A stretch of DNA of 64,000 nucleotides from Planctomycetota bacterium (GTDB taxonomy: Bacteria > Planctomycetota > UBA8108 > UBA1146). Positions 12,577-16,856 of this stretch are shown piece after piece. Where the stretch lies: NCBI GenBank assembly GCA_016776905.1, contig JADHSM010000001.1:180455-244454 (forward strand), written 5' to 3'. Numbering within the stretch: position 1 is the stretch's first letter; every line of letters starts with the position of its first letter. Both the position numbers and the translations under genes were made by a program. Under the pieces are notes generated by a model. The model had not been told where the DNA came from. It was given only the letters and a program-made list of their open reading frames with translations, and ran no database searches.

Positions 12577-13452
12577 ATGAAGCAATACTCTTGGTTCAGA
12601 AGTGGGGGGCTGTCTCGATATTTTTCGAGACCCAAATCGATCGCAGAAATGATCGATGTGATTCGATGGGCACGATCGGAATCGCATGAGATTTCCCTAT
12701 TGGGTCTCGGTGCGAACATGTTGTTTCCCGACGAATATTTCGATGGTCTCGTTCTTCAAACAACCAAGCTCAAATCAACCATGCTCAAATCAAATGAGAA
12801 TTTCCAGTTTTTCAATGAATCTGAAATTGATGTTTCCGCAGGAGTTCAACTGGAGCGATTAGTGAACAGTTTAAATTCTCAGGGTTTAGCAGGATTGGAG
12901 AATCTTGCTGGAATCCCTGGGACAATTGGGGGATCTGTTTGGGGGAATGCCGGAGCAGGTCATGGTTCGATCTCGGAACAAGTGGTCGCAGTTCAGTGTA
13001 TCGACTCTAACTGTGAACTCCGTTGGATTTCGGCAGATGAGTTTGAATGGAGTTACAGGTACTCAGGTATCGGTGACCACATTATTTGTGCAGTTCGATT
13101 CCGTGTTGAACCGAACTCAGACCCCGTGAGATTGCAGGAAAGTAGTCGAGACCTGAAGGCATACAAGGAGAGTGTTCAGCCTTATGAGCAAAAATCGACA
13201 GGCTGTATTTTCCGAAACCCTGAATCGGGACCTGGAGCGGGTCAATTGATCGATAACGCAGGTCTTAAGGGTTGGACTGTTGGAGGAGCGAAAATCTCAG
13301 AGCTCCATGGGAATTTCATCGTCAATGAATCGAATGCGACCACAGCAGATGTTCTGGAACTTGTTCATACCATCGAAGAGAAGATTTTTTCGCAAACAGG
13401 TATCCGATTAGATCGTGAAGTCATTTTGGCATGCCAGGAGAAGTCGCGATGA
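12577..13452 (+). CDS. murB: UDP-N-acetylenolpyruvoylglucosamine reductase MurB
   Basis: FAD-binding-type N-terminus (FRSGGLSRYF...LGLGANMLF) and MurB C-terminal domain. The track ORF begins at TTG 12541, overlapping the murC stop; ATG 12577 gives the usual length. Confidence 0.85.
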   Translation: MKQYSWFRSGGLSRYFSRPKSIAEMIDVIRWARSESHEISLLGLGANMLFPDEYFDGLVLQTTKLKSTMLKSNENFQFFNESEIDVSAGVQLERLVNSLNSQGLAGLENLAGIPGTIGGSVWGNAGAGHGSISEQVVAVQCIDSNCELRWISADEFEWSYRYSGIGDHIICAVRFRVEPNSDPVRLQESSRDLKAYKESVQPYEQKSTGCIFRNPESGPGAGQLIDNAGLKGWTVGGAKISELHGNFIVNESNATTADVLELVHTIEEKIFSQTGIRLDREVILACQEKSR

Positions 13453-14288
13453 ACCAGCACTCAGAGGTCTCTCCCCCCTGGTTTCGATTCTTGTTTGCGA
13501 TCTTCCTGTTTGTGGGGGCGGGATTATTCATTTCTCACGCCAAGAATACTATCGATGACCAACAATTGAGAGCTCGGGGTGATTGGCAAATCGATCAAAA
13601 GAGTTTTCCAAGTTGGCTTCCTGAAAGTAAAACGCCGCAGTTCCGGGATCTGAATTTGATTCCTTCAAGAATCCAGCATGATAGTGTTCGTTGGAAAGAT
13701 CAGGTTCAGCAAGAGTTGCTCGGCAACCCTTGGATAGTGGCGGTCGATTCGATATCTCGCACGGGAACCCAAATTAGTTTTCATGCAAAAATTCAGAGAC
13801 CTTTAGTCGGTGTGGTCATTCCGGGAGGGCATCTCCTTGTGAATTCCAATGGCGGAGTGATTGAGTTTATCCGTGGTGATTTTCTGGATTCGAACTGGGG
13901 AATCCCTGAATTCATGCCATCTCGGGTTGGGGTGTTATCGGAAGAGTCGACGGAACTTCCGGAAGAATCTGAGTATCAACAATTACGATTACTCCTCCAG
14001 ACTCTTGAAAAAGGCGAAATCCTGAGGAGGTTTCCCCAATTTATTCGAGATATCCAACGCTTGCCTATGGAAGGTGGGGATCTATGGATTCTTGTTTGTA
14101 CAGGTGGGTTAAGGCTTCTCTGGGGACGTGTTCCCACTGCTGAGGTGGTGATGGCGTCCTCTCTGGGGGATAAATTGGCGGCTCTGGAGTACGTGATTGG
14201 GAAATCTCAGGAACTGATCGAGATCTCCCCAGGCATCGAGCGCATCAGCCTCTGTGAGGGCCCGGTTCCCTTTATTAAGATGCGCTGA
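13449..14288 (+). CDS. FtsQ/DivIB-like bitopic protein (candidate)
   Basis: Short cytoplasmic N-terminus, a single transmembrane helix (WFRFLFAIFLFVGAGLFI) and a roughly 230-aa extracytoplasmic domain. ATGA overlap with the murB stop. It occupies the ftsQ position; similarity to POTRA is assumed from position and topology only. Confidence 0.4.
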   Translation: MNQHSEVSPPWFRFLFAIFLFVGAGLFISHAKNTIDDQQLRARGDWQIDQKSFPSWLPESKTPQFRDLNLIPSRIQHDSVRWKDQVQQELLGNPWIVAVDSISRTGTQISFHAKIQRPLVGVVIPGGHLLVNSNGGVIEFIRGDFLDSNWGIPEFMPSRVGVLSEESTELPEESEYQQLRLLLQTLEKGEILRRFPQFIRDIQRLPMEGGDLWILVCTGGLRLLWGRVPTAEVVMASSLGDKLAALEYVIGKSQELIEISPGIERISLCEGPVPFIKMR

Positions 14289-14365
14289 GCCTAAATCTCA
14301 CCGTGATCCGTGACTTCGAGAGGTAGCGTATATCGGTCAGGAAGTTTATCCTGCTCAATTCATGG

Positions 14366-14704
14366 GTGGGTTGTCAGCAATCGAATGGATTTCTGAAACC
14401 CTCTCAGGATTTCAGCAACTCGACAGGAGTTAGGGTGGCCTCAAAGGATAGGTACCGGCGATTGATCGGAGAAGTGGCTCAGGAAATGGGTTTTGTGGAG
14501 GCAGATGCCATCCAGGAAGCGCTTTCACTGCAAAACCAACTTCGTTCAGAGGGCCGTAAGGTTCCATTGCTGGGACAGCTTCTGGTGGAGTTGAACCATC
14601 TCACTACGGATCAATTGCAGCAATTGATCGAGATCATCTACCCCGTGGAGGATGCGGATTCTCCACCTTCGGCGGAGACCCCAGAGGCAAGTGAGGAAGA
14701 CTGA
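14366..14704 (+). CDS. Small protein with two MshEN-like (cyclic-di-GMP-binding-type) motifs
   Basis: RLIGEVAQEMGFVEADAIQEALSLQ and LLGQLLVELNHLTTDQLQQLIEI both resemble the RLGxx(L/V/I)(L/V/I)xxG(L/V/I)(L/V/I)xxxxLxxxLxxQ motif of the MshEN/T2SE N-terminal domain. The stop overlaps the start of the next gene (TGATG). Confidence 0.35.
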   Translation: MGCQQSNGFLKPSQDFSNSTGVRVASKDRYRRLIGEVAQEMGFVEADAIQEALSLQNQLRSEGRKVPLLGQLLVELNHLTTDQLQQLIEIIYPVEDADSPPSAETPEASEED

Positions 14705-16791
14705 TGTCAGATGAAGGAAAAAAGAAACGGCGAGTCCCGGCACCTCGAAAAAAAGGTGTGGCTCCAGAAGGGCAAGCCAAAAAGGTCCCCCCAAGGAGAA
14801 TAGCACCCGGAAAAGCATCCGGAGCAGATCCCGTAGCAGCAGGAAAAGCAGGAGCTTCCCAGAACCCCGTCACTCCTGAAGGCGGCTCTCCGCAAGCGGC
14901 AGCACAGCAAGCGGCAGCAGCACAGCAAGCGGCAGCACAGCAATCCGCGGCAAAGCAAGCGGCAGCAAAGCAAGCGGCAGCAAAGCAAGCGGCGGCAAAG
15001 CAAGCGGCGGCAAAGCAAGCGGCGGCACAGCAAGCGGCAGCACAGCAAGCGGCGGCAAAGCAAGCGGCGGCAAAGCAAGCGGCGGCACAGCAAGCGGCGG
15101 CAAAGCAAGCGGCATTACAGAAGGCTGCAGCGGTGCAACAGGCGGCAGCCAAGCAAGAGGCCCTAAAACGAGCGGCAGGTCAACAAGCGGCAGGTCAACA
15201 AGCGGCAGGTCAACAAGCCGCTCCGACCGGAAAAGCCACTGGCAGAGCACCCGGAAAAACACCCGGAAAAACACCCGCAAAAGCATCTGGGAAAGCACCA
15301 TCGCGAGCAACCCGATCAGGTCGAGCTCCTGCCAGAGGAGCTTCTTCAGATCGAACTCAGCCCCGAAAGATGGCGAAGACTGGAAGACGTCAACCGGTGA
15401 AGGGGCCCTTGGCAGATGGAGATGAAGACGTCGCCGAGCAGTCGAAATCATTGCCGCTCATATTAGGTGGAGTCGGAGTCGTTCTTGTCATCGCAGTCAT
15501 CGGATTCCTGATGAGTGGGGGCGATACTCCAGTGGAGCCTGTCGTCAAGAAGGTTGCGAAGGCGCCAGTAAAGAGTCAGAAGGAAATTCGTGAAGAGAGG
15601 GCTCGTAAAGCTCTGGACCGTGCCGAGAAAGAAAATGCTGCAGAGCCCGGCGAGAGATTTAGGTGTGCTGCAAGGTTGAGAAGTGTGGCCATGGAATACT
15701 CCAATACCACTGCAGGTGCAGAAGCTGGAGAATTGCGTTCGACTCTCCTGAATACATGGCGTACCGAAGTCGATGGCGCATGGAACTCTCTCAGATCCGA
15801 TGTATTGCTGGCATTCAGCGAGGCACGATTTGAACAGGCGAGTCGCCTTCTTGAAGAATTGCCGCCAGTATTCCTGGGGGCTTCTCAGGTGCTCGAGGGG
15901 AAATTTGAACAAGAAATCGTTCTGTTGAAGAAGGATGCCAAAGCTCAATTACTCTTCAAGAAACAGCTAGATGAACTCTCTACTAAAGCCGGATTCTATG
16001 CACGAAAAGGCTACGAGGATATCGCCTTGGCAGTCATCGAGGCTCTTCCTGAAAAGGTTCAGGAAGATGCTCCAGACGTATGGCGTCTCAAAGAGGAGTT
16101 GATCCAGAAAATCCAGCGAGAAGGGCTCACTCTTCTTATGGAGCAAGAGTCTGCACTCGAAGCAGAAATAGCCGAAGCAAGACGTCTGGAAAAGGAACGT
16201 AAAGCGGCTGAAAGAATTCGTCGCTGGCTGGATATGAGAGACTCTGTGGCGTGGAAACCTCTGTTGGGGAAATCCAATCTGTATAACTGGGTTGCCTCCA
16301 GTGACAGAATGAGAGACATGCAGGGAGAAAGAACCTTGTGGCGCGTGATGGAGAGAAATGGTGAGGGAGTCCTTCTGATCGATAACCGTTCAGGGAGCGA
16401 TTCATACACCGGTGTCTATAGCAATCACTGGGAAGATTACCTCCTAGAGTTTGAGTTGAATCTCAAGGTGGGGGCACTTCGTATCTCACCTCGAACTCAG
16501 GCGGATGCGCAACGGGGAGCGATCACTGATGGGACTTCTCCACCTTTGGAGTTGGGAGACGATTTCCCTAAAAACCGCTGGCTGAAAGTGACTCTCGAAG
16601 TCCATGGGAAATCGGTGACACTTCGCTATGGAGATGGGGGAGACAAAATTGAGCTCGACCCTGAAACCACGCGATTGCCCAGCAGTGGTGGATTTGTTTT
16701 CTACGCAGCAGATGGAACTCGCCTCGAGATCAGGGGTGTGCGAGTGAAGATTGTCAATGACACTCGCGAGGGTGGTATCTTCGCCAAGTAA
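14704..16791 (+). CDS. Bitopic membrane protein with an Ala/Gln/Lys-repeat basic cytoplasmic tail, coiled coil and a C-terminal beta-rich domain (function unknown)
   Basis: 695 aa. Basic N-terminus (KKKRRVPAPRKK), about 45 x (AAAKQ/AAAQQ) repeats, a transmembrane helix (LPLILGGVGVVLVIAVIGFLM), a coiled-coil region and a roughly 150-aa C-terminal domain. Last gene of the dcw block, followed by a strong terminator. Confidence 0.6.
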   Translation: MSDEGKKKRRVPAPRKKGVAPEGQAKKVPPRRIAPGKASGADPVAAGKAGASQNPVTPEGGSPQAAAQQAAAAQQAAAQQSAAKQAAAKQAAAKQAAAKQAAAKQAAAQQAAAQQAAAKQAAAKQAAAQQAAAKQAALQKAAAVQQAAAKQEALKRAAGQQAAGQQAAGQQAAPTGKATGRAPGKTPGKTPAKASGKAPSRATRSGRAPARGASSDRTQPRKMAKTGRRQPVKGPLADGDEDVAEQSKSLPLILGGVGVVLVIAVIGFLMSGGDTPVEPVVKKVAKAPVKSQKEIREERARKALDRAEKENAAEPGERFRCAARLRSVAMEYSNTTAGAEAGELRSTLLNTWRTEVDGAWNSLRSDVLLAFSEARFEQASRLLEELPPVFLGASQVLEGKFEQEIVLLKKDAKAQLLFKKQLDELSTKAGFYARKGYEDIALAVIEALPEKVQEDAPDVWRLKEELIQKIQREGLTLLMEQESALEAEIAEARRLEKERKAAERIRRWLDMRDSVAWKPLLGKSNLYNWVASSDRMRDMQGERTLWRVMERNGEGVLLIDNRSGSDSYTGVYSNHWEDYLLEFELNLKVGALRISPRTQADAQRGAITDGTSPPLELGDDFPKNRWLKVTLEVHGKSVTLRYGDGGDKIELDPETTRLPSSGGFVFYAADGTRLEIRGVRVKIVNDTREGGIFAK
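14893..15225 (+). repeat. 15-bp tandem repeat array (caagcggcagcaaag / ...cacag variants, then 3 x caagcggcaggtcaa) encoding (QAAAK/QAAAQ)n and (QAAGQ)3
   Basis: Directly visible; it produces spurious antisense ORFs in the six-frame track. Confidence 0.9.
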
Positions 16792-16817
16792 GAGGTCGTT
16801 TTTAGTTGGAATCAAAA

Positions 16818-16856
16818 AGGGACGAAAACCGGTTCAGGTTTTCGTCCCTTTTTATG
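16818..16856 (+). terminator. Rho-independent terminator (13-bp perfect stem agggacgaaaacc/ggttttcgtccct followed by TTTTTA)
   Basis: Seen directly, 27 bp after the stop at 16791. Confidence 0.85.

Follow-up and report, generated by a model that had tools for sequence, protein, structure and literature searches.

Gene layout at the 3' end of the dcw operon

In the window, the 64,000-nt stretch of planctomycete DNA analysed here, a dcw operon closes with three same-strand ORFs (Table 1). These had been proposed in an earlier note on this DNA, and were found to be real, at the positions given there. Two have a second plausible start: the longest ORF of the middle gene begins at 14366, and the first gene has an alternative ATG at 13449 that would give a 4-nt ATGA overlap with the stop codon of murB. 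Upstream of the trio (5') lie mraZ, rsmH, an FtsL-like ORF, ftsI, murE, murF, ftsW, murG, a LysM gene, murC and murB, identities taken in part from the gene calls of the syntenic locus L001. The stop codon of the small gene and the start of the large gene overlap by 1 nt (TGATG); throughout the clade of the window the genes overlap via TGATG or ATGA, while distant members have 120–390 nt between the small gene and the large one. The intrinsic terminator, whose hairpin was equalled in stability by none of 200 shuffles, begins about 23 nt past the last stop codon and ends the dcw transcription unit, parting it from groEL; the 695-aa gene is thus the last of the operon, as the note had it. A hairpin with a T-run also follows the large gene in L002, L003, L005, L024 and L029. 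In other bacteria the slot behind ftsQ is usually occupied by ftsA-ftsZ.

Table 1. Features of the three-gene segment (positions in the window)
Feature	Position	Strand	Basis or detail
FtsQ-like bitopic protein, 285 aa	13431..14288	+	ORF; TM helix at about residues 15-38, remainder periplasmic
Small cytoplasmic MshEN_N-like protein, 89 aa	14435..14704	+	GTG start, AGGAG ribosome-binding site
Bitopic protein, 695 aa, last operon gene	14704..16791	+	ORF; family profile
Basic Pro-containing head, KKRRVPxPRKK...RVPxRR, residues 6-33	14719..14802	+	Alignment
About 20-22 AAA(K/Q)Q pentads, residues 65-171	14896..15216	+	Tandem Repeats Finder
Single transmembrane helix, residues 248-272	15445..15519	+	Kyte-Doolittle maximum 2.87
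Predicted periplasmic helical domain (residues 292-456) and 58-residue helix (457-514)	15577..16245	+	Predicted model
Predicted C-terminal beta-sandwich, concanavalin-like, resembling a divergent DUF1080 relative	16246..16788	+	Foldseek, Pfam
Intrinsic terminator	16814..16853	+	Hairpin -27.1 kcal/mol, z = -6.5, then U-run

The ftsQ position is occupied by a bitopic periplasmic protein. Like FtsQ/DivIB, it follows murB, has the expected size and is bitopic with its N-terminus inside; its conserved blocks (NPWI..V, RP.VGV, LLVD..G.VI and W.L...G..L.WGR) recall the POTRA and beta domains. Orthologues occupy the matching position at 13 close and five distant loci. It differs from FtsQ in that not even a profile built from 11 sequences matched FtsQ in Pfam, NCBIfam or the PDB significantly; Pfam FtsQ_DivIB_C was hit by only two of 14 orthologues, at E = 0.013 and 0.056. 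FtsB, the usual partner of FtsQ, has moreover been lost from the phylum (PMC12673574). The earlier label "FtsQ-like" therefore stands for position and topology and not for HMM support, and FtsQ identity, based on position, topology and these weak Pfam matches, is unproven.

Conservation of the gene order

At 90% identity the large-protein family falls into 29 clusters, and an exhaustive profile search yielded 53 clusters at 50% identity, all members being MAGs or metagenome contigs. Conservation of the trio downstream of murB had been set beforehand as a test of the proposal in the note, and was found at 13 clade loci and in five distant relatives: the order murE-murF-ftsW-murG-LysM-murC-murB-FtsQ-like-small-big is present in all 13 clade loci that have upstream DNA, and is kept, with a small-protein homologue directly 5' of the large gene, in the relatives with full upstream context at E values from 5e-89 to 8e-17 (L023, L024, L025, L026/L027 and L029). 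The short contig L028 has at least the small-big pair. Overall, the arrangement ...murC-murB-[FtsQ-like]-(SAM_HAT)-small-big, in which distant members tolerate an unrelated SAM_HAT gene between the FtsQ-like and small genes, holds for every examined context with upstream DNA, to E of about 1e-17, the one exception being the weakest match. The adjacency of the pair at the dcw 3' end, with a terminator behind it, thus persists over deep divergence. Synteny runs on, however, into the downstream groEL-groEL-dnaJ-grpE genes, groEL lying 3' of the large gene at each examined locus; part of the linkage could therefore stem from a gene order conserved across the clade and not from any coupling of function.

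The small protein and cyclic-di-GMP

The small protein had been described as 112 aa long, but its true length is almost certainly 89 aa from the GTG at 14435, because AGGAG precedes this codon, most database homologues and orthologous ORFs measure 89–92 aa, and the 23 codons upstream are conserved in the closest relative only. It consists of four predicted helices and a disordered acidic tail, modelled by AlphaFold2 at pLDDT 85–91 over residues 10–70. The top nine Foldseek matches of this model were all N-domains of MshE, PilF GSPII-B or PilB, the best being c-di-GMP-bound MshE (5HTL) and PilF GSPII-B; the confident part superposed on the c-di-GMP-bound PilF domain at 0.9–2.0 Å over 57–58 columns. 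A sequence profile of the small protein likewise matched PilF (E = 3e-6) and MshE 5HTL (E = 0.02) among PDB sequences, while the NCBIfam c-di-GMP_motif model scored 26.9 bits, below its cutoff of 38, and Pfam MshEN gave no match. The claim that the protein is MshEN-like is thus borne out by both profile and predicted fold: with good confidence, it is predicted to adopt the four-helix MshEN_N fold of the c-di-GMP-binding unit as a stand-alone bundle.

The two MshEN-type motifs that had been read in it fare unequally. Motif I, (L/F/R/K)(I/F)G..A...G....h...L..Q with invariant G3, L21 and Q24, fits the extended consensus of the MshEN/GSPII_E_N receptors (R/K/L)LGxx..G......L...L..Q (V. cholerae MshE, 5HTL; T. 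thermophilus PilF GSPII-B, 8PDK). Motif II is degenerate: Leu2 and Gly3 are retained and invariant, position 10 is Asn in the subclade of the window, position 11 is His in its clade and His, Val or Tyr in distant members, and Gln24 is absent from all 12 members, always replaced by Ile, Leu or Val. The two motifs are set 10–11 residues apart (11 in the window protein) rather than the usual 5. The protein further differs from these receptors in standing alone at 89 aa, with neither an MshEN_C subdomain nor an ATPase, in scoring below the curated HMM thresholds, and in having as its genomic partner a dcw-encoded bitopic protein rather than a pilus or secretion ATPase.

Binding of c-di-GMP by the small protein is plausible but unproven, and we judge its prospects to be evenly balanced, the uncertainty arising from the loss of the motif II Gln and the doubled spacer. 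In PilF, Leu at motif position 1 is tolerated and raises affinity, and Q218E, at the very position lost here, weakens binding 77-fold yet leaves 460 nM, whereas PilF GSPII-A, whose motif II is degenerate, does not bind (PMC11731258). The MshEN N-subdomain suffices by itself, since an isolated MshEN_N fragment (1–62) binds unaided (PMC5013675). No GGDEF signature was seen in 483 kb, a tiny sample mostly from one region and so uninformative.

The large bitopic protein

The 695-aa protein is built of a basic head, a low-complexity tail, one transmembrane helix and, on the periplasmic side, a helical stalk with a concanavalin-like domain; the positive-inside rule puts its N-terminus in the cytoplasm. 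The layout previously suggested (disordered cytoplasmic tail, transmembrane helix, folded periplasmic domain) is upheld. Head columns K7, K8, R9, R10, P12, P14, R15, P29 and R32 are invariant among 15 sequences, and a comparable basic head occurs in P0040, P0041, P0042, P0048 and P0051; in 16 of 39 distant members it is swapped for a Cys4 zinc-ribbon. Tandem Repeats Finder reported a 15-nt period in 14.6 + 3.5 copies, amounting to less than half of the "about 45" pentads first counted, and a basic Pro/Gly/Lys/Arg-rich stretch follows them to nt 15417. Net charge is +9 for residues 1–60, +15 for residues 176–238, and about +35 for the N-terminal 238 residues. Most members of the family lack the repeats, and among orthologues the Lys and Gln of the pentads are interchanged, some being nearly all AAAQQ.

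Conservation in the family falls on its periplasmic parts, the most conserved motifs (NLYNW, SNHWEDY, LRISPRT and GGFVF) lying in the C-terminal domain. A low-confidence model of this domain (pLDDT 35–79) gave as top Foldseek matches DUF1080/3-keto-glycoside hydrolases (4jqt, 8rr2, 8tda, 3osd and 4hxc; E = 3e-3 to 6e-2), and PF06439 was the top Pfam family in five of 10 members, below cutoff at best (E = 0.006) and faint in P0052. The domain thus resembles a divergent concanavalin-like fold of DUF1080 type.

The likeness to FtsN, ZipA or DamX that was earlier suggested did not hold beyond layout. Like FtsN/DamX (SPOR), MapZ/LocZ, RodZ and ZipA, the protein is single-pass with a low-complexity cytoplasmic region and a folded extracytoplasmic domain that likely binds glycan, and is encoded among division and cell-wall genes; it differs in lacking sequence or domain kinship with them (a domain HMM search found no SPOR, ZipA_C, RodZ HTH or MapZ domain) and in its concanavalin-like/DUF1080-like outer domain. 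In sum, the observations of the note were partly confirmed (the ORFs and the operon end, not the repeat count, small-protein length, motif II or FtsQ HMM support), as was its interpretation (MshEN_N likeness, bitopic layout, operon end and synteny, not an FtsN/ZipA/DamX likeness beyond layout).

A candidate envelope module in the ftsA-ftsZ slot

The whole planctomycete phylum is reported to be without ftsZ (PMC10632474, PMC12673574) and mostly without FtsA (PMC12673574), although some of its classes otherwise retain dcw (PMC12673574; PMC12283558). We infer from these phylum-wide statements that the organism of the window lacks FtsZ, and no FtsZ-like sequence occurred in the 483 kb of DNA examined; the cytoplasmic part of the large protein could accordingly not bind FtsZ or, in most of the phylum, FtsA. 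We propose, with a probability of roughly 50% for the explanation as a whole, that the final three genes make up an envelope module specific to a lineage of uncultured Planctomycetota and placed where ftsA-ftsZ follow ftsQ elsewhere, and that the small-big pair may have a division or cell-wall role. The large protein would act as a scaffold spanning the membrane: in the periplasm its lectin-like domain would touch peptidoglycan or some other glycan of the envelope, and in the cytoplasm its head would recruit partners. The small protein, whose acidic tail would face the basic head of the large one, and which in the window clade is probably translationally coupled to it, would be its cytoplasmic adaptor or regulator; were it to bind c-di-GMP, the level of this second messenger would be tied to the building of septal or zonal wall by the FtsW/FtsI/FtsQ machinery, whose genes lie upstream. 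A literature search found no prior description of this gene pair. The pair is a concrete candidate for how growth or division works in FtsZ-less planctomycetes that keep dcw.

Operon membership is not decisive, since P. limnophila can do without dcw genes, ftsQ among them (PMC10632474), so that a place in dcw is no guarantee of a division role. A minority possibility that we take seriously is accordingly that the pair is unrelated to division or wall, the large protein being a membrane-anchored periplasmic protein of the DUF1080 superfamily that binds carbohydrate or processes 3-keto sugars, the small one its regulator, and their place at the dcw end inherited gene order. The DUF1080 superfamily is hugely expanded in planctomycetes, and the family nearest to the C-terminal domain consists of sugar-catabolism enzymes, not wall-binding modules. 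By structure and by HMM this domain is closest to the DUF1080/3-keto-disaccharide hydrolases (PF06439; BT2157 3OSD, 8RR2), which are indeed its sole family-level signals; syntenic conservation of the whole region through groEL-dnaJ-grpE and the tolerated SAM_HAT insertion also fit inherited order. Nonetheless no member reaches the threshold of PF06439; the domain is joined to a transmembrane helix, as well as to a helical stalk and cytoplasmic head that are foreign to DUF1080 enzymes, and would serve in binding rather than catalysis; and the pair, inside the dcw transcription unit with a terminator behind, stays adjacent down to E of about 1e-17 while tail architecture and the neighbouring insertion vary.

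We consider it improbable that the large protein is instead a nucleoid-to-membrane tether, with basic head, Lys/Ala repeats and the relatives' zinc-ribbon binding DNA in segregation or a nucleoid-occlusion-type role. The charge of the cytoplasmic tail, the Cys4 heads and histone-H1-like matches (NF038053, E = 7.5e-7; PF07382 HC2, E = 9e-4) would suit such a tether, but these matches are composition-driven and well under cutoff (29.6 vs 80 and 19.8 vs 40 bits), repeat Lys is freely exchanged for Gln to the point of nearly uncharged AAAQQ repeats, and what the family conserves is periplasmic, the repeats being confined to a minority. That the pair is in function a part of the chaperone cluster downstream, for instance as envelope-stress sensor and regulator, is very improbable despite the constant presence of groEL, given that a CIRCE operator was looked for and not found, that the two are kept apart by about 500 nt and by the strong terminator, and that translational coupling and tight spacing join the pair to the upstream genes rather than to those downstream.

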